Shown here piece after piece: positions 1,661 through 13,515 of a DNA stretch of 19,920 nt. The stretch comes from a virus, in UHGV virus genome UHGV-0097752. One strand, written 5' to 3'. Position 1 is the stretch's first letter. Each line of letters opens with the position of its first letter. Both the position numbers and the translations under genes were made by a program. Under the pieces are notes generated by a model. The model was not told the DNA's origin, did not search any database, and saw only the letters and a list, made by a program, of their open reading frames with translations.

Positions 1661-2377
<717 letters not shown>

Positions 2378-3288: not shown

Positions 3289-4141
3289 TATTGCAACCGT
3301 AACACATTTAAGGCCTTCACAACGGCCTGTGGAGCGTCGTGTGGCAGAAGTTGAAGATGGTTATACCCGTCTTGCAAATGCCCTGTATGAAGAGCTTATC
3401 GGCGCAGATTTAACGAAAAATCAGAGCAAGGTTGCCCACGCCATATGCCGTAAAACATACGGCTACGGTAAAAAGATGGATCGCATCTCTGATAGTCAGT
3501 TAGCTCAAATTACCAGGCTGCCAAGACAGAAGGTAAACAAGGCCAAGAATGAGCTTATCGCGATGAAGGTTATCCTTCGCGAAGGCCAGCAAATCGGGCC
3601 TAACAAGAACATCGAGGAATGGCAAATCGAAGGGTGTCACTACTCTGGTGATAATGTCACTGCATTGGTGACAAAAAGTGTCACCAAAACGGTGACAGCG
3701 CTGTCACCAAAACAGGGACACACAAAAGAAACTATTACAAAAGAAAAAAGAAATAATAAAAACACTATGTCCGAAAGTGTTCGGACGGAGTGTGAAAAAT
3801 CACCTGACCGTCACGAAGAAACCGACAAGGCATTCGAGGAAATATTCTGGTGTGCAGGCATGCGGAAAGCCGGGAAGAAAAACGCAGCTTCGGCATTCAG
3901 AACACAGTTCAGGGAATGGCGTAAAACTACCAGGGGTACGGCAAGCGAGTTTGCCACGATGCTGGCAGAAGACATCGCATGCAGGAATGGTAAGCAGTTC
4001 GGATTCGACAGGTTGTTACCATCGAGCTACCTGAACGGTCAGCGCTGGAACGACGAGAAGCCAGAAACCATTCAACCACAATCCAAACCATCATCCGCAA
4101 TCACCGTATCGAAAACTGGCTACGTGTTTTTCGACAGGTGA
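3281..4141 (+). CDS. O: Replication initiator, lambda O family
   Basis: 286 aa; N-terminal region resembles lambda O ([14 protein letters not shown] ... [41 protein letters not shown] ... GPNKNIEEW); contains an iteron/AT-rich block mid-gene as in lambda. Confidence 0.85.
3647..3765. repeat. Putative origin: GTGACA/TGTCAC-based iterons followed by an AT-rich tract, inside the O gene
   Basis: Repeated GGTGACA...TGTCACC units (3647-3715), then AAAGAAACTATTACAAAAGAAAAAAGAAATAATAAAAACA. Matches the ori-lambda layout of iterons plus an AT-rich unwinding region. Confidence 0.6.
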
Positions 4142-4248: not shown

Positions 4249-6129
4249 ATGACGCCAAGTGAACTCAGTGACCTGCTTTGGGCGCAGGTTGACAGGGTGG
4301 CTCCGCACCTGTTGCCAAACGGCAAGAAAGAGGGGCATGAGTGGGTTGCCGGTAACGTCAACGGTGACAAGGGAAACAGCCTTAAGGTCAACCTTAGCGG
4401 CAAGAAAAAATGGGCTGATTTCGCTGAGGGAGACGGCGGTGACATGCTTGATTTGTGGATGGCATGTCGTGGAATTAACCTGCATCAGGCTATGCAGGAA
4501 GCGAAAGCCTTTCTCGGAATCAAGGATGACGATCACCATTTCGATGCCAAACGTGAGAAGAAATTCTCCAGACCTGACCGCAAGAAAATCGCCCGCTACG
4601 TTACCAGAACAGAATCCCATCTTGAGTACCTGCAATCGCGTGGCATATCGCCAGAAGTCGTAAAGCGCTACGAGGTTGTCAGCGGCAAGGTGTGGAATGG
4701 AGAACGGGAACTGGATGCTCTGGTGATTCCGTACAAACGCGATGGTGAGTTGTTGCAGGTCAAGCGAATCAGCACTGAGCGCCCGGACGGGAAGAAAGTC
4801 ATTATGGCAGAAGGTGATTGCGAACCTTGTCTGTTCGGATGGCAGGCTCTGGACGCTGGCGTGAGGGCGGTTGTACTTTGCGAAGGCGAAATTGATTGTA
4901 TGAGCTATGCGCAATACGGCATCTCGGCGTTATCCGTGCCGTTTGGTGGCGGGAAAGGCGCTAAGCAACAGTGGATTGAGTTTGAGTATCACAACCTCGA
5001 CAGGTTTGAGGAAATATTCATCTCGATGGATGTTGATGATGTTGGTCGTGAAGCCGCAAGGGAAATCGCAAGCCGACTCGGTGAACATCGTTGCCGTCTT
5101 GTTACTCTGCCGTACAAAGACATCAACGAATGCCTGATGAACGGTGTTACCGAGGATGAAATCTGGCAGTACATCGGCACGGCATCCTACTTCGATCCTG
5201 AAGAACTCTACAGCGCGCGCGAGTTTTACCAGGACACTATCAACGCTTTCTACGGCAAGCAGCAGTATCTGTTTAATCCACCGTGGGAATCTCTGGCAGA
5301 TAAATTCCAGTTCCGTGAGGCCGAGTTGACGCTGGTCAATGGTGTGAACGGTCACGGAAAAACGGAGGTTGTCGGGCATATGGCACTTGAGGCAATGCGT
5401 CAGGGGGTGAAGACGTGCATCGCGTCACTTGAGCTGAAGCCTGGTATTCTCCTTAAGCGCCTTACCCGTCAGGCAACGTGCTGCAAGATGCCGCCAGTGC
5501 TGGAAATTGACTCTGCATTTAAATTTTATGACGAAAGACTTTGGGTGTTTGGCCTGACCGGAACGGCGAAAGCCGACAGACTGATCGAAATATTCGACTA
5601 CGCTCGCCGCCGATACGGGATCCAGTTATTCATCATCGACAGCCTAATGAAATGTGGCATAGGCGACGATGACTATAACGGGCAGAAGGCGTTTGTTGAC
5701 TCGATTTGCGACTTCAAAAACAAAACAAACTCCCACGTCATTCTCGTTACTCACTCGCGAAAAGGAGACAGCGAAGAAAAACCAACCGGGAAAATGGACG
5801 TAAAAGGCTCTGGAGCGATAACAGACCTGACAGACAACCTTTTCATCATCTGGCGTAACAAGGCTCGCGAGAGAGCGTTACAGAGAGTTCAGAGTGGTGA
5901 AAAGATGTCAGAGAAGGACGAACAGCTACTGGCATCTCCGGCATCTGTTTTGATGCTTGAAAAACAACGTAACGGCGAAGGTTGGGAAGGTGGTGTCCCG
6001 TTGTTCCTTGACGAGCAATCGCACCAGTTCCTGCAACTTGAATCAGGATCGCCATATAGCTACATCGCCAATATGCCGAAATCGGAATATGACGAGGCGT
6101 GGCGACAGGAAAACGTGACGGAGTATTAA
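4249..6129 (+). CDS. Bifunctional primase-helicase (TOPRIM primase domain plus RecA-like helicase domain)
   Basis: 626 aa. TOPRIM-like acidic motifs (VVLCEGEIDCMS, ISMDVDDVGREAA), Walker A GVNGHGKTEV, Walker B-like LFIIDSLMK. Follows O where lambda carries P. Confidence 0.8.
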   Translation: MTPSELSDLLWAQVDRVAPHLLPNGKKEGHEWVAGNVNGDKGNSLKVNLSGKKKWADFAEGDGGDMLDLWMACRGINLHQAMQEAKAFLGIKDDDHHFDAKREKKFSRPDRKKIARYVTRTESHLEYLQSRGISPEVVKRYEVVSGKVWNGERELDALVIPYKRDGELLQVKRISTERPDGKKVIMAEGDCEPCLFGWQALDAGVRAVVLCEGEIDCMSYAQYGISALSVPFGGGKGAKQQWIEFEYHNLDRFEEIFISMDVDDVGREAAREIASRLGEHRCRLVTLPYKDINECLMNGVTEDEIWQYIGTASYFDPEELYSAREFYQDTINAFYGKQQYLFNPPWESLADKFQFREAELTLVNGVNGHGKTEVVGHMALEAMRQGVKTCIASLELKPGILLKRLTRQATCCKMPPVLEIDSAFKFYDERLWVFGLTGTAKADRLIEIFDYARRRYGIQLFIIDSLMKCGIGDDDYNGQKAFVDSICDFKNKTNSHVILVTHSRKGDSEEKPTGKMDVKGSGAITDLTDNLFIIWRNKARERALQRVQSGEKMSEKDEQLLASPASVLMLEKQRNGEGWEGGVPLFLDEQSHQFLQLESGSPYSYIANMPKSEYDEAWRQENVTEY

Positions 6130-6917: not shown

Positions 6918-7338
6918 ACTAAGAAGCCCCATCCATCAGCAGAACGCCATTCAAGCTATCCAGCAAATCCTTCCAGACCCAACCAAACCAATCGTAGTGA
7001 CCATCCAGGAACGCAACCGCAGCTTAGACCAAAATCGGAAGCTTTGGGCTTGCCTTGGTGACGTCTCTCGTCAGGTTGAATGGCATGGTCGCTGGCTGGA
7101 TGCAGAAAGCTGGAAGTGTGTGTTTACCGCAGCATTAAAGCAGCAGGACGTTGTTCCTAACCTTGCCGGGAATGGCTTTGTGGTAATAGGCCAGTCAACC
7201 AGCAGGATGCGTGTAAGCGAATTTGCGGAGTTATTAGAGCTTATACAGGCATTCGGTACAGAGCGTGGCGTTAAGTGGTCAGACGAAGCTCGACTGGCTC
7301 TGGAGTGGAAAGCGAGATGGGGAGACAGGGCTGCATGA
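6895..7338 (+). CDS. ninB: NinB (Orf-family recombination mediator)
   Basis: 147 aa, near-identical to lambda NinB as recalled (QQILPDPTKPIVVTIQERNRSLDQNRKLWACLGDVSRQVEWHGRWLDAESWKCVF...). Confidence 0.9.
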   Translation: MVRKLTFELRSPIHQQNAIQAIQQILPDPTKPIVVTIQERNRSLDQNRKLWACLGDVSRQVEWHGRWLDAESWKCVFTAALKQQDVVPNLAGNGFVVIGQSTSRMRVSEFAELLELIQAFGTERGVKWSDEARLALEWKARWGDRAA

Positions 7339-8207
7339 TAAATGTCGTTAGTTTCTCCGGTGGCAGGACGTCAGCATATTTGCTCTGGCTAATGGAGCAA
7401 AAGCGACGGGCAGGTAAAGACGTGCATTACGTTTTCATGGATACAGGTTGTGAACATCCAATGACATATCGGTTTGTCAGGGAAGTTGTGAAGTTCTGGG
7501 ATATACCGCTCACCGTATTGCAGGTTGATATCAACCCGGAGCTTGGACAGCCAAATGGTTATACGGTATGGGAACCAAAGGATATTCAGACGCGAATGCC
7601 TGTTCTGAAGCCATTTATCGATATGGTAAAGAAATATGGCACTCCATACGTCGGCGGCGCGTTCTGCACTGACAGATTAAAACTCGTTCCCTTCACCAAA
7701 TACTGTGATGACCATTTCGGGCGAGGGAATTACACCACGTGGATTGGCATCAGAGCTGATGAACCGAAGCGGCTAAAGCCAAAGCCTGGAATCAGATATC
7801 TTGCTGAACTGTCAGACTTTGAGAAGGAAGATATCCTCGCATGGTGGAAGCAACAACCATTCGATTTGCAAATACCGGAACATCTCGGTAACTGCATATT
7901 CTGCATTAAAAAATCAACGCAAAAAATCGGACTTGCCTGCAAAGATGAGGAGGGATTGCAGCGTGTTTTTAATGAGGTCATCACGGGATCCCATGTGCGT
8001 GACGGACATCGGGAAACGCCAAAGGAGATTATGTACCGAGGAAGAATGTCGCTGGACGGTATCGCGAAAATGTATTCAGAAAATGATTATCAAGCCCTGT
8101 ATCAGGACATGGTACGAGCTAAAAGATTCGATACCGGCTCTTGTTCTGAGTCATGCGAAATATTTGGAGGGCAGCTTGATTTCGACTTCGGGAGGGAAGC
8201 TGCATGA
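7335..8207 (+). CDS. ninC: NinC (PAPS-reductase-like)
   Basis: Start at ATG 7335 (ATGA overlap with the ninB stop), [22 protein letters not shown]... The 310-aa track ORF has an upstream in-frame extension I do not consider translated. Confidence 0.9.
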
Positions 8208-8885: not shown

Positions 8886-9054
8886 CCCATCCCAATCCCT
8901 TCAATACCAGAAAGAAAGCGTCGAGCGAGCTTTAACGTGCGCTAACTGCGGTCAGAAGCTGCATGTGCTGGAAGTTCACGTGTGTGAGCACTGCTGCGCA
9001 GAACTGATGAGCGATCCGAATAGCTCAATGTACGAGGAAGAAGACGATGAGTGA
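8878..9054 (+). CDS. ninF: NinF
   Basis: 58-aa [61 protein letters not shown], lambda NinF-like as recalled. Confidence 0.75.
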   Translation: MLSPSQSLQYQKESVERALTCANCGQKLHVLEVHVCEHCCAELMSDPNSSMYEEEDDE

Positions 9055-9556
9055 TGTTAAAGAAAAAGATATCCCCGGCTTTGAGGGTATATATAAAGTA
9101 ACTGAAAATGGAGACATCATTTCATGCCGTAAATCAAAAAAATTATCTCATGGCATTAAACTAGGAGGATATGCATTTGTCGGTCTGTATCCAGGTGGCG
9201 GGAAAAGACCATCATATAAAATGGTTCACAGAATTGTTGCAGAAGTATTTATTGATAACCCAGATGGCAAACCGGAAGTTAATCACAAGGATGGAAATAA
9301 ACTTAATAATAAAGTTGAAAATCTTGAGTGGGTAACGCGAACAGAAAATGCGAAACATGGATTTGATTCCGGATTGCTTGTTCATGGGTTTAATCATCAC
9401 TTCTGCAAACTAACGCCAGAACAAGTGAAATCAATATATAAATCAAAAGGCAAATACAGAGATATAGCCAAAGAATTTGGTGTTTGTGCGCAGACAGTGT
9501 GCAACATAAAAAACAAATCAGCGTACCGACGTTTTTTGGAGGGGATTGATGTTTAG
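9047..9556 (+). CDS. HNH homing-endonuclease-like protein (NUMOD4-like N-terminus, HNH_3 core, C-terminal HTH)
   Basis: 169 aa; GFEGIYKVTENGDIIS (NUMOD4-like), HRIVAEVFIDNPDGKPEVNHKDGNKLNNKVENLEWVTRTENAKHG (HNH_3-like), C-terminal KSKGKYRDIAKEFGVCAQTVCNI (HTH-like). Visibly more AT-rich than the flanking nin genes. Confidence 0.8.
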   Translation: MSDVKEKDIPGFEGIYKVTENGDIISCRKSKKLSHGIKLGGYAFVGLYPGGGKRPSYKMVHRIVAEVFIDNPDGKPEVNHKDGNKLNNKVENLEWVTRTENAKHGFDSGLLVHGFNHHFCKLTPEQVKSIYKSKGKYRDIAKEFGVCAQTVCNIKNKSAYRRFLEGIDV

Positions 9557-10183: not shown

Positions 10184-10368
10184 ACGCCACAATTCAAACG
10201 ATACCAGAGCTTCTTATCCAGACACGAGGTAATCAGACCGAAGTGGCGAGGATGCTTTCCTGTGCAAGAGGAACAGTGCTCAAGTACAACCGAGACAGCA
10301 AAGGTGAGCGTCACGTAATAGTTAACGGCGTCCTGATGGTCAAACAGGGCAAGAGGGGTAGACCATGA
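10180..10368 (+). CDS. ninH: NinH
   Basis: 62 aa; TIPELLIQTRGNQTEVARMLSCARGTVLKYNRDSKGERHVIVNGVLMV resembles lambda NinH as recalled. Confidence 0.8.
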   Translation: MNATIQTIPELLIQTRGNQTEVARMLSCARGTVLKYNRDSKGERHVIVNGVLMVKQGKRGRP

Positions 10369-10883
10369 GCATAAGAGAACTAAACCTCACCAAAGAACAG
10401 CACGATTGGCTGAATGGCTGGCTTGAACTGTGGGGTGCATGGGTTTACTCAGGTCGCCTGGAAAAGCGCATGAGCAGCGTAATAGCGAAGTTCATGGAGA
10501 GCGTAGAGCCGGGAAGAGTTATGACAAGGCCAATGTGTAATGATGATGATGGAATGTTGATTTCTCAGGTCGTCGATTCCGTCATGTACATTGACAAGAA
10601 AGCCTTTGGCATCCTCCTCAGCTACTACGCTCATGGTTCATCTAAGCGAGCAATTGCATCCTACTATCACGCGACTGCAAAGCCACGCAAGATGTGTGGA
10701 CGTGGTGGCGAGGGATGGAGAAAACCTTCACTGGCAACCTGTAGAAACGAAATTGACGACATCCTGAAAGCGTCGTTATTTGTTTTGTACCAGCCAATGC
10801 AAAATGCTTTCAAAATGCGTAAACGTGTTGAGAAAGTTAAGCATGTTGCTGTTAAAAGCCTTGACATGCAATTAGCCATTTAG
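10365..10883 (+). CDS. Q: Late-gene antiterminator Q (phage 82/21-type Q family)
   Basis: 172 aa; WLELWGAWVYSG and RPMCNDDDGMLISQVVDSV motifs typical of Phage_antitermQ proteins; directly upstream of a strong promoter and the lysis genes. Confidence 0.8.
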   Translation: MSIRELNLTKEQHDWLNGWLELWGAWVYSGRLEKRMSSVIAKFMESVEPGRVMTRPMCNDDDGMLISQVVDSVMYIDKKAFGILLSYYAHGSSKRAIASYYHATAKPRKMCGRGGEGWRKPSLATCRNEIDDILKASLFVLYQPMQNAFKMRKRVEKVKHVAVKSLDMQLAI

Positions 10884-11666: not shown

Positions 11667-12126
11667 TCAACGTAAGGCGTTCCTCGATATGCTGGCGTGG
11701 TCAGAGGGAACTGATAACGGACGGCAGAAAACCAGAAATCATGGTTATGACGTCATTGTAGGCGGAGAGCTATTTACTGATTACTCCGATCACCCTCGCA
11801 AACTTGTCACGCTAAACCCAAAACTCAAATCAACAGCCGCCGGACGTTACCAGCTTCTTTCCCGTTGGTGGGATGCCTATCGCAAGCAGCTTGGCCTGAA
11901 AGACTTCTCTCCGAAAAGCCAGGACGCTGTGGCATTGCAGCAGATTAAAGAGCGTGGCGCTTTACCGATGATTGATCGCGGCGATATTCGTCAGGCTATC
12001 GATCGTTGCAGCAATATCTGGGCGTCGTTACCTGGTGCAGGTTACGGTCAGTATGAACATAAAATCGGTGACCTGATTTCCCGGTTTAAAGAGGCTGGTG
12101 GGGTGGTAAATGAAGTTGAGCTATAA
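11650..12126 (+). CDS. R: Endolysin R (lytic transglycosylase)
   Basis: 158 aa, lambda R-like ([39 protein letters not shown]...); overlaps the S stop. Confidence 0.95.
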
Positions 12127-12502
12127 GCTGGCTATCTCTGCATTCTTCTTTACTGTCATCGGTTCTTTCATCTGGTCTGCTAACCACTACTACAGCAAAT
12201 ATCAGCACGAAAAGAAACGTGCTGATGAGGCTGTACGAAATGCTGAATCAGCAACAGCCATTACCAATAACGTCCTGCAATCACTGCAAATCGTCAATAC
12301 AGTACTGGAGGCTAACCAGCATGCAAAACAGCAGATCGCACTGGAGTCACAAAGAACCCAGGAAGATATCAAAATGGCCGTTGCGGATGATGATTGTGCT
12401 TCACGTCTTGTGCCTGCTGCCGCTGCTGAGCGGTTGCGGAAGTATGCGGACAGTTTACGTGAACACTCCGACGGTACCACTGCCAGCCAGCCTGACGGCT
12501 GA
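12110..12502 (+). CDS. Rz-like i-spanin (inner-membrane spanin subunit)
   Basis: 130 aa; N-terminal TM segment (LAISAFFFTVIGSFIWSANHYY) then a charged, helix-prone periplasmic region; follows R. Not the lambda Rz sequence. Confidence 0.7.
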   Translation: MKLSYKLAISAFFFTVIGSFIWSANHYYSKYQHEKKRADEAVRNAESATAITNNVLQSLQIVNTVLEANQHAKQQIALESQRTQEDIKMAVADDDCASRLVPAAAAERLRKYADSLREHSDGTTASQPDG

Positions 12503-12656
12503 AACCCCTCAGCCTGATTTACCTGATCATTTTACGTGGGGCTCGAGCTTAGATCTGAATGCCGCCTTGTTGTCTGCATTGGCGCAGTGTAATACCGATA
12601 AAGCTGACATCAGAAGGATTGAAGTTGAGCGTGGTCACATCATGCAAAAAAAATGA
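12387..12656 (+). CDS. Rz1-like o-spanin (outer-membrane lipoprotein subunit), overlapping Rz in another frame
   Basis: Different-frame ORF starting inside Rz: MMIVLHVLCLLPLLSGCGS (lipobox LLSGC) followed by a proline-rich segment. Extends 154 nt past the Rz stop. Start codon choice is uncertain. Confidence 0.55.
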   Translation: MMIVLHVLCLLPLLSGCGSMRTVYVNTPTVPLPASLTAETPQPDLPDHFTWGSSLDLNAALLSALAQCNTDKADIRRIEVERGHIMQKK

Positions 12657-12748
12657 TGTTCACTTTATTTTGTTCCTTGATTTGATATGTGATGACCCAA
12701 TAGATACAAAGCACCTGATTTGGGTGATTTTTTTGAAGGACTATACAC

Positions 12749-13069
12749 ATGAAAGACGGCATTTATTTTGTTGTGTTCAGAAGCGGTCATAATGATGTTG
12801 GCAATGGCACGGTCGTTGTGAAGGATAATGCGGTTAATGGTGGTGATTTTGGGTTTACCTATCAGGGGCGTGTACAAGATGGGGTATTGAAACTTCATGT
12901 ATCCCGCCATAACCCTTCAGCACAAAACGTTATTGCAGGCCTTAACGATTATGTGATGGATCTCTCTGTGAGAGATATTGGGGATGGTTATTACCTTGAA
13001 GGTGGAATTGCTGGTGTTCCTGGTGCGACTCTGTCTGTACAGGCGAAATTTATCGGCAATTTGATTTAA
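12749..13069 (+). CDS. GrlR-family protein (moron)
   Basis: 106 aa; MKDGIYFVVFRSGHNDVGNGTVVVKDNAVNGGDFGFTYQGRV...LKLHVSRHN...AKFIGNLI resembles the GrlR regulator of LEE-encoded type III secretion as recalled. AT-rich upstream region and a downstream terminator. Confidence 0.65.
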   Translation: MKDGIYFVVFRSGHNDVGNGTVVVKDNAVNGGDFGFTYQGRVQDGVLKLHVSRHNPSAQNVIAGLNDYVMDLSVRDIGDGYYLEGGIAGVPGATLSVQAKFIGNLI

Positions 13070-13084
13070 ATCGATTCTCTCCTA

Positions 13085-13116
13085 AACCGCCCACTTTCCA
13101 CGGGCGGTTTTTTGTT
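13085..13116 (+). terminator. Intrinsic terminator after the GrlR-like gene
   Basis: AACCGCCC-ACTTTCCAC-GGGCGGTT followed by TTTTTTGTT. Confidence 0.6.
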
Positions 13117-13164
13117 GCCATTACGATGGGTAGACCAGTAGTAATGATTGAAGGAGAAATTTAA

Positions 13165-13515
13165 ATGCCCCCACGAACCCCAAAAGCCTGCCGTGTTCGC
13201 GGCTGCCGCCATACCACCACTGACCCGTCAGGCTATTGCGAAAGCCACAAAAGCGAAGGCTGGAAGCAATACAAACCTGGACAATCCCGTCATCAGCGCG
13301 GCTACGGTTCGAAGTGGGACAGTATCCGCGCGCGTGTCCTGAAGCGTGACAAAGGCCTGTGTCAGTTATGTCTGCGTGCTGGTGTGGTGCGTGAGGCGAA
13401 AACCGTTGACCACATCATCCCTAAAGCGCATGGCGGCACTGATGCCGACAGTAATCTGCAGAGTCTGTGCTGGCCGTGCCATAAGGCGAAGACGGCCCGT
13501 GAACGGTTAAAGTGA
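13165..13515 (+). CDS. HNH endonuclease (terminase-associated type)
   Basis: 116 aa; Cys/His-rich with DHIIPKAHGGTDADSNLQSLCWPCHKAK; sits immediately upstream of the terminase small subunit, as in HK97-type cos packaging modules. Confidence 0.85.
   Translation: MPPRTPKACRVRGCRHTTTDPSGYCESHKSEGWKQYKPGQSRHQRGYGSKWDSIRARVLKRDKGLCQLCLRAGVVREAKTVDHIIPKAHGGTDADSNLQSLCWPCHKAKTARERLK

Follow-up and report, generated by a model that had tools for sequence, protein, structure and literature searches.

A mobile GrlR-fold gene cassette between the lysis and packaging genes of a lambdoid prophage

Positions 12657-13116 of the virus genome UHGV-0097752 are a mobile single-gene accessory cassette, or moron, lodged in a hypervariable slot between the lysis and packaging genes of a lambdoid prophage. 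We refer to the whole stretch of DNA analysed, 19,920 nucleotides (nt) long, as the window. The case for a moron in a hypervariable slot rests on comparison with related phages, which have at this point either an empty site or other cargo. The single open reading frame (ORF) of the cassette specifies a protein of 106 amino acids (aa) with the predicted fold of GrlR, a regulator from the LEE (locus of enterocyte effacement) of enterohemorrhagic and enteropathogenic Escherichia coli. Taken together, the gene, its slot and its flanking signals are very probably an autonomous GrlR-fold moron. A sequence-only reading of this DNA had gone further and suggested, from the action of GrlR on its LEE partner GrlA, that the protein could modulate host virulence or envelope regulation, and on this point our analysis leads elsewhere.

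Results

A single-gene cassette in a variable slot

The ORF has an ATG start and a TAA stop and is seated between the o-spanin gene Rz1/LysC and the HNH-terminase genes. The cassette gene, its two flanks and the segment that varies among related phages are positioned as follows.

12444-12656, plus strand: Rz1/LysC o-spanin gene, the left flank (Pfam LysC, E=5.6e-16; RefSeq annotation of the identical locus)
12623-13164: variable segment relative to the empty site (blastn against L106, L112 and L170)
12749-13069, plus strand: gene for the 106-aa protein, an eight-stranded beta-barrel with the GrlR fold that belongs to the orphan phage-type clade (PHROG 2483; WP_000651448.1)
13165-13515, plus strand: HNH endonuclease gene, the right flank and first gene of an HK97-type packaging module (Pfam HNH, E=2.3e-16)

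When the related phages L106, L112 and L170 were compared with the window by blastn, positions 12300-12622 and 13165-13400 aligned and the intervening DNA did not. Homology ends inside the 3' end of Rz1 and restarts at the HNH start codon (13165). L106 is an empty site, with 27 nt from the Rz1 stop codon to the HNH ATG against 508 nt in the window, and the HNH gene is 96-100% identical in phages that are free of the cassette. The sequence-only reading had described a self-contained unit between the lysis and packaging genes, at the place where lambdoid phages have their lysogenic-conversion cargo; the gene order (Rz1/LysC, ORF, then HNH, TerS and TerL), the empty site in L106, the variability of the slot and the deviant composition of the segment all agree with that description. 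Rz1/LysC itself shares just the last 59 nt of Rz and runs 154 nt past it, an overlapped rather than an embedded arrangement, and its codons from 12623 on are unlike those of related phages, so that they are counted in the variable segment. Two further ORFs that overlap here, 12665-12910 on the minus strand and 12559-12792 on the plus strand, were rejected as spurious, since stop codons interrupt both in relatives.

We surveyed the slot in 80 IMG/VR phages fetched via the same HNH protein. In the 60 where the Rz-HNH gap could be measured, it extends from about 70 to 1490 nt. The 106-aa gene is present in 16 of the 80, as two alleles, and most do without it. Other cargo of the slot includes a KilA-N protein, a Rha-type protein, a DUF2513 protein, several membrane-anchored proteins of no assigned kind and a unit of two genes (208 and 117 aa) in reverse orientation. 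The Rz1-HNH junction is a cargo hotspot in L092-L171 (for example L109 845-1868, L123 1427-1873 and L166 1396-1950); some of the proteins encoded there carry a membrane anchor at the N-terminus, and for most of them Pfam gives no match. We also considered the 290-nt gap of SfIV as a remnant of the cassette and rejected it, the sequence being unrelated.

Prophage defence and superinfection-exclusion factors are frequent in the variable slots of temperate phages, and the 106-aa protein might be one of them. The hypervariable slot, the stand-alone expression signals and the swapping of two 54%-identical alleles at one E. coli site are all in keeping with such a role. PADLOC, however, gave zero matches for the 106-aa protein and for ten other cargo proteins of the slot, the protein has no enzymatic or membrane domain, and selection within allele groups is purifying, not diversifying. 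We therefore think a defence role improbable.

The gene is also found in other surroundings. It stands ahead of quite different terminases in Salmonella (L087) and Klebsiella (L091), after Q in L090 and among the tail genes of the Acinetobacter phage qsb1 (L089). In most enterobacterial phages it lies directly 3' of Rz/Rz1 in late-operon orientation. One copy, in A. baumannii, is chromosomal and adjoins a TetR gene and a VgrG cluster. This phage-type homologue (L084 5001-5324; 107 aa, 49% identity) has a non-phage context in its contig: it converges with the TetR gene and adjoins a VgrG / Tli4-like type VI secretion cluster. The record for L090 (PP059946.1, vB_PvuS_Pm34) is labelled 'Vibrio phage' with Vibrio cholerae as host, a label that looks doubtful; its layout is lambdoid/HK97-like and its genes are of enterobacterial type.

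Composition and terminator

The segment departs in composition from the DNA around it. The intergenic stretch upstream of the ORF (12657-12748) has 33.7% GC and the whole window 49.6%, as expected from the AT-rich upstream region described earlier. The ORF has 43% GC, and its GC content at third codon positions (GC3) is 36%, lower than in the lysis genes (48-49%) and than in HNH and TerL (60-65%). Downstream, the strong intrinsic terminator that the sequence-only reading had recognized is present.

13084-13116, plus strand: intrinsic terminator, a 9-bp G+C-rich stem and a 9-nt loop, then TTTTTTGTT

The stem is formed by AAACCGCCC and GGGCGGTTT (13084-13092 paired with 13102-13110) and is followed by a T6 run, with a dG of ~-14.5 kcal/mol. 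A simple scanner overlooked this terminator because it takes loops of <=8 nt and the loop here has 9 nt. Of 36 distinct homologous flanks, 31 have an equivalent terminator 3' of the gene.

The cassette protein and its fold

RefSeq names WP_000651448.1 a 'GrlR family regulatory protein'. Among the sequences of the PDB, phmmer matched GrlR only (2ovs and 4kt5, E ~2e-9, residues 1-103), and BLASTP identity to GrlR is 33%. An AlphaFold2 model made with 30 homologues has eight strands and a mean pLDDT of 92.4. Foldseek superposes this barrel on 4kt5_A with a TM of 0.85, an rmsd of 2.2 A and E=4.6e-8, and the next PDB fold follows at E>1e-3. The GrlR-family assignment of the sequence-only reading, which had named structure prediction and comparison with GrlR as its check, thus holds at the level of both sequence and model. 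Family profiles give a more restrained picture. The protein scores 24.1 bits against Pfam PF16518, for which the gathering score is 26.8, and over residues 1-61 only; a precomputed PF16518 match is present on many close relatives. Against the NCBIfam equivalog NF010652 it scores 38.5 bits, with the cut-off at 205. PHROG 2483, to which no function is assigned, is matched end to end. Judged by these comparisons, the 106-aa protein is a member of the GrlR superfamily and not a GrlR equivalog.

The likeness to GrlR (2ovs, 4kt5; PF16518) extends over the full length and the same eight-stranded barrel, includes the shared motifs MKDGIY, GGD, YQG, LHV and AKFI, and takes in most positions of the dimer interface. 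Residues I7, I25 and I107 of that interface correspond to I5, V23 and I102, which are invariant and hydrophobic in the phage clade, and I23 and V39 correspond to T21 and T37, of which T21 is invariant but polar. Because positions matching the GrlR dimer interface are conserved, the protein is probably a homodimer. It has neither a signal peptide nor an enzymatic or membrane domain, and Pfam, NCBIfam and PADLOC returned no catalytic family for it; with no signal peptide, it is taken as cytoplasmic. A profile search recovered 467 clusters at 50% identity, and the homologues, all of ~106 aa, come from Cronobacter, Citrobacter, Enterobacter, Klebsiella, Serratia, Yersinia, Pantoea, Pectobacterium, Kosakonia, Salmonella and Acinetobacter. 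Their N-terminal 40 residues (MKDGIYFVxFxS..G.GTVVVKD..VNGGDFGFTYQG) are near-invariant and their C-terminal half is variable.

A barrel of this kind could work primarily by binding a small molecule or lipid, its cavity sequestering a hydrophobic ligand or signalling molecule and protein binding being secondary. The hydrophobic cavity of the GrlR barrel held a detergent, Triton X-100, and the authors of that structure proposed a hydrophobic ligand (PMC1868957). Our model likewise gave weak fold matches to lipocalins, fatty-acid-binding proteins and the Cap15 cyclic-dinucleotide receptor barrel, but these are poor (TM 0.4-0.5, E>0.05), no member of the family has a known ligand, and the BFVD viral structure library contained no match at E<=0.001 that would mark another phage-encoded protein of this fold. 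We regard a ligand-binding role as rather unlikely.

Relation to GrlR and its partners

GrlR is defined by three features, namely that it binds GrlA through an EDED patch, is strongly acidic and is co-transcribed with grlA within the LEE (PMC1868957, PMC9979310), the EDED surface motif (residues 46-49) being needed both for GrlA binding and for repression (PMC1868957). In the 106-aa protein EDED aligns to QDGV, within a loop that is variable across the phage clade. The predicted pI is 5.8 against 4.8 for GrlR, the 12-residue C-terminal tail of GrlR is missing, and the plug-loop motif [DE]IPS[VIAM]L, which is common to GrlA-partnered proteins, is replaced in the phage clade. Nor is there a partner gene at hand: a hidden Markov model (HMM) of the CaiF/GrlA family, built from GrlA, CaiF and five GrlA-like proteins, found nothing at E<=1 in a 1.09 Mb six-frame translation of the window, a 40-kb prophage and all the phage-type loci, and each of the 11 control loci was matched. 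In a neighbour-joining tree built from 149 representatives of the family, the phage-type clade (24 tips) stands apart from the GrlA-linked clade (8 tips, including GrlR).

Unlike GrlR, then, the gene is phage-borne, has no adjacent grlA-type gene, lacks EDED, the strong acidity and the C-terminal tail, has a different plug loop, belongs to a separate clade, scores far under the equivalog cut-off and occurs in many genera that are free of the LEE. None of Klebsiella, Enterobacter, Cronobacter, Serratia, Pantoea, Pectobacterium, Yersinia and Acinetobacter is known to carry the LEE. These differences bear directly on the proposal that a prophage-borne GrlR paralogue binds GrlA and modulates LEE type III secretion in the host. 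The homology and the fold are shared with GrlR and at least one carrier, strain 2014C-3075, came from human stool, but the EDED patch on which GrlA binding depends (PMC1868957) is gone, the protein misses the Pfam and NCBIfam cut-offs, no CaiF/GrlA gene accompanies it in its loci, and the E. coli strains that carry the gene were obtained from birds, dogs, pigs and cattle. We consider this proposal, to which the sequence-only reading pointed, very improbable.

GrlA-linked relatives outside the LEE have no EDED either. The lack of this motif thus speaks against binding of the LEE GrlA in particular and not against binding of helix-turn-helix proteins generally, and EDED marks the GrlR of the LEE rather than the whole family. 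In all five of the chromosomal relatives nearest GrlR a PF07180 (CaiF_GrlA) gene lies within two genes. One of these relatives, P0190, is in a LEE-like type III secretion system (T3SS) island. The others (P0169, P0128, P0139 and P0120) belong to a three-gene module that includes the PF07180 gene and stands beside fimbrial genes (P0169, P0128) or an HMW1C-type gene (P0139, P0120). The module, found at L174 2730-4345, L178 2613-4339, L180 2507-4327 and L182 2796-4330, consists of a CaiF_GrlA-family gene (160-177 aa), a gene for a protein of 226-282 aa, which in L178 has a GerE/LuxR-type helix-turn-helix, and a GrlR-like gene (108-114 aa), and it adjoins chaperone-usher fimbrial or HMW1C-type glycosyltransferase genes. 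This arrangement suggests that GrlR/GrlA-type regulatory pairs control adhesin loci outside the LEE. The chromosomal genes (L174, L178, L180, L182) resemble the phage clade in superfamily, in size and in being free of EDED; unlike it, they always have the PF07180 partner two genes upstream, cluster with GrlR and lie outside late operons. At the loci of the remote family members P0108 and P0102 we found no CaiF/GrlA neighbour. The 106-aa protein thus sits in the GrlR fold superfamily but outside its GrlA-partnered lineage.

Action in trans on a regulator of the host, of the CaiF/GrlA family or another, is compatible with this placement. In a specific form of the idea, the phage proteins would be orphan anti-activators of CaiF/GrlA-family regulators generally, whether linked to fimbriae and adhesins or CaiF itself, and would alter the surface structures or the metabolism of the lysogen. 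The constant association of the relatives nearest GrlR with CaiF_GrlA genes, several of them beside fimbrial or HMW1C-type genes, argues for it, as does the fact that these partnered relatives also lack EDED, which makes the loss of the motif compatible with binding. The phage clade is mainly from Enterobacterales, and PF07180 is likewise mainly enterobacterial. Yet the phage clade lies outside the GrlA-linked clade, its plug-loop motif is replaced, copies occur in Acinetobacter and the remote members have no GrlA neighbour. On balance we find this form of the idea unlikely.

The leader

The 36 distinct flanks fall into two classes by their leaders, and conservation in class A, to which the window belongs, was measured over 20 leaders. 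In class A, TTGAAT is separated by 13 variable nt from CCCAATAA, which stands 7 nt ahead of a hairpin (GCACCT...GGGTGC); a T-rich run and a Shine-Dalgarno sequence come next. In the window the elements of this layout are:

12677-12682, plus strand: -35-like box TTGATT (TTGAAT or TTGAAA in relatives), conservation 0.74 against 0.49-0.59 in its flanks
12696-12703, plus strand: -10-like box CCCAATAG (CCCAATAA or CCCCATAA in relatives), 13 nt past the -35-like box, conservation 0.81
12711-12727, plus strand: leader hairpin, 7 nt past the -10-like box, with a stem of 12712-12716 and 12722-12726
12735-12740, plus strand: Shine-Dalgarno sequence GAAGGA, 8 nt 5' of the ATG, conservation 0.81

The -35-like box is the point at which similarity sets in among otherwise unrelated contexts. 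Across class A the boxes, the hairpin arms and the Shine-Dalgarno sequence are conserved at 0.74-0.91 and the spacers at 0.49-0.63. Among the HNH-bearing phages, all 16 with the gene have the block of boxes and hairpin and all 64 without the gene lack it; the block is therefore part of the cassette, not of the phage backbone. Class B, mainly from Klebsiella-type phages, has a perfect TATAAT (or TATAGT or TAAAAT) 33-38 nt 5' of the ATG and a short GCC-N4-GGC palindrome 5-7 nt after it. In the class B locus L042 the TATAAT is the sole plus-strand sigma-70 consensus match in 800 nt.

The sequence-only reading had credited the gene with its own promoter. What stands of that claim is the conserved block that travels with the gene; what does not is any sigma-70 promoter recognizable in the window itself. 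A consensus sigma-70 scan found no promoter in window 12200-13400, the sigma-70 weight-matrix score of the upstream region is no better than that of shuffled sequence, and the alternative sigma-70 -10 element, TAGATA at 12701-12706, is weak. The case for a promoter is thus a comparative one. The sigma-32 consensus has been given as TTGAAA, ~13-14 nt and CCCCATWT (PMC6687850), or in an alternative form as CTTGAA-N13-17-CCCCATNT (PMC4263515). TTGATT-N13-CCCAATAG of the window agrees with 10 of 14 sigma-32 consensus positions (p=0.2 against shuffles). Its class A relatives agree with 10-12 of 14 at one fixed place, and relatives at 11-12 of 14 have p from 0.000 to 0.06; L021, with TTGAAG-N13-CCCCATAA, is one that looks sigma-32-like. 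The pattern TTGA-N15-CCCMAT occurs once in the window, with 0.10 occurrences expected. By these comparisons the class A boxes appear nearer to the sigma-32 than to the sigma-70 consensus, and we treat sigma-32 dependence as a lead, not a result. At L063 (~3925-3952) a homologue of 54% identity, from another flank class, has upstream of it TTGAAT-N14-CCCCATTA, a near-perfect motif of the sigma-32 type that agrees with 12 of 14 positions (p=0.003 against shuffles).

Covariation supports the hairpin as an RNA element. Pairing holds in 90% of the cells of its stem, and 3 pairs contain 5 compensatory cells between them, whereas controls slid along the alignment reach 21-54%, and its G-U pairs are compatible with plus-strand RNA only. 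Its dG is -5.6 kcal/mol, the relatives' hairpin has a sixth closing G-C pair, and a T7 run (12728-12734) comes right after it; a simple scan flagged the hairpin as terminator-like. In both classes the hairpin or palindrome begins about where the transcript would, which fits a 5'-terminal stabilising stem-loop, and an operator overlapping +1 is an alternative role that it could have. Among other candidates, an RNA thermometer or a leader that sequesters the Shine-Dalgarno sequence was rejected, as that sequence is unpaired in the predicted fold; readings of the hairpin and palindromes as NtrC, sigma-54 or FliA elements, compared by eye with their consensus sequences, failed on spacing or sequence; and Rfam at a permissive threshold gave only chance-level matches over 12400-13300.

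If the upstream block were not a working promoter, the gene could be a late gene of the lytic cycle, a lysis or packaging accessory or a counter-defence factor, transcribed only in dependence on Q. Its late-operon orientation directly after Rz/Rz1 in most enterobacterial phages and the weakness of the promoter-like boxes in the window lend themselves to this view. It accounts less well for the terminator and the compositional break, which are typical of autonomous morons, for the perfect TATAAT of the class B relatives, for the copies among tail genes, after Q and in a non-phage Acinetobacter location, and for the many related phages that lack the gene. An exclusively lytic role seems to us an unlikely explanation.

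Alleles, carriers and selection

Of 5,426 complete E. coli genomes, 14 contain the identical locus. Another 54 match its left part only (window 12600-12867) at 80-90% identity, and in all six of those listed RefSeq annotates a GrlR family gene. The proteins of the two E. coli alleles are 54-56% identical, between flanks that have 93-100% nt identity and include the promoter-like block and the hairpin. Identity between the alleles decays in the 5' part of the ORF, is ~45% over 12860-13100 and exceeds 95% again at 13180. The window allele is near the Cronobacter, Citrobacter and Enterobacter types and the second allele near the Salmonella type. Compared with alleles that are 82-94% identical, dN/dS is 0.03-0.08, indicating strong purifying selection, and both halves of the ORF are equally constrained within an allele group. 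This pattern looks like the import of diverged versions rather than diversifying selection. Since the alleles diverge from about codon 35, the left recombination junction lies inside the ORF, and recombination on the left side seems to have used the conserved leader and N-terminal coding region as its substrate. A comparison of window 12780-13180 with L057 has the same form: the leader and early coding region are shared, and the two are wholly different from about codon 35 through the terminator.

The surrounding prophage

By gene content the window is a lambdoid prophage. Its other genes are, in order:

KilA-N, the first of the genes along the window
1661-2374, minus strand: cI-type repressor
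cro, cII and O, after the cI-type repressor
4249-6129: 626-aa fusion of Toprim and DnaB-like domains (primase-helicase)
nin region: NinB, a PAPS-reductase-like gene, NinX, NinF, an HNH_3 endonuclease, RusA and NinH
10365-10883: Q
from 11343: holin
from 11650: lysozyme
12110-12502: Rz
after HNH: P27-type TerS, TerL, portal, protease and capsid

The primase-helicase fusion (window 4249-6129) takes the place of a lambda P-type helicase loader. Two members of the nin region are a PAPS-reductase-domain protein (window 7275-8207) and an HNH_3 / NUMOD4 homing-endonuclease-like ORF (window 9047-9556) that lies between NinF and a DUF968 fragment.

Discussion

The cassette resembles the classical lambdoid morons, of which lambda bor, downstream of Rz, is an example. 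Like them, it adds a single gene at a late-operon junction, is absent from close relatives and has its own terminator, a promoter-like region and a deviant composition. It differs from them in that its product is a cytoplasmic GrlR-fold barrel and not a lipoprotein or membrane protein, in that its boxes are nearer sigma-32, and in that expression from the prophage is putative.

How such a gene would serve the phage or its host can be approached from its anatomy and from its one characterized relative. We envision a scenario in which the gene is transcribed alone in the lysogen, from the cassette's own, possibly stress-responsive, promoter. Q-modified polymerase ignores terminators, as established for lambda, and during lytic growth it would also read through the gene. 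The product would be a cytoplasmic homodimeric eight-stranded barrel, and this dimer may bind and sequester another macromolecule, non-enzymatically and with a target other than the LEE GrlA. The partner would most plausibly be a regulator that binds DNA and belongs either to the host or to a competing phage. We propose this mode of action by analogy with GrlR, the only characterised relative, whose dimer sequesters GrlA by its helix-turn-helix in a 2:1 complex (PMC9979310). In K-12, LEE promoters are also repressed by GrlR when GrlA is absent, and this unexplained GrlA-independent repression may be linked to the activity we envision (PMC9979310). Taken as a whole, the statement that the cassette encodes a dimeric barrel which sequesters a macromolecular partner is one that we favor only tentatively, and we place it somewhat short of probable.

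Several observations pull the other way. The detergent-holding cavity of GrlR offers ligand binding as an alternative, and the position of the gene within the late operon allows for a purely lytic-cycle role. The promoter-like boxes of the window, like its sigma-70 scans and its sigma-32 match, are individually no better than chance. The phage clade, moreover, scores remote members that are not linked to GrlA about as well as it scores GrlR, and the transfer of the GrlR mechanism is weak for that reason.

A broader and frankly speculative extension of the sequestering-barrel scenario would make the phage-type 106-aa proteins a group of orphan trans-acting anti-regulators, shuttled among Enterobacterales by temperate phages. 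They would be expressed from a sigma-32-like stress promoter, with the 5' hairpin stabilising the transcript, and would sequester helix-turn-helix activators of the host, either CaiF/GrlA-family regulators of fimbriae, adhesins and T3SS or another conserved regulator; the GrlR of the LEE would then be one partnered branch. We think it quite unlikely that this extension is correct in all its parts. If it were true, the expression of host surface or virulence genes would hinge on whether the prophage is carried and on stress.

Uncharacterised GrlR homologues in other genera had already been noted (PMC9979310), and the gene already had its RefSeq name. In the literature searched we found no paper on a phage-borne GrlR-like form. 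We know of no study that treats GrlR as other than a LEE-specific regulator. What is new is an orphan phage-carried clade, a defined cargo slot, a regulatory block that travels with the gene, and the confinement of GrlA linkage to a small sister lineage.

As a moron the cassette will not surprise a phage specialist; its interest lies in correcting a misleading functional label and in providing a compact, testable system. A well-conserved branch of the GrlR family is stand-alone cargo of temperate phages across many Enterobacterales, with its own terminator and promoter-like block, and the only branch with GrlA-type regulators as partners is a small chromosomal one. Because that partnering is limited to a small branch, names such as 'T3SS negative regulator' on the phage genes over-interpret them. 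Sequestration of host regulators by the phage proteins, if it occurs, would be a new route of lysogenic conversion; otherwise the family needs a different functional label.

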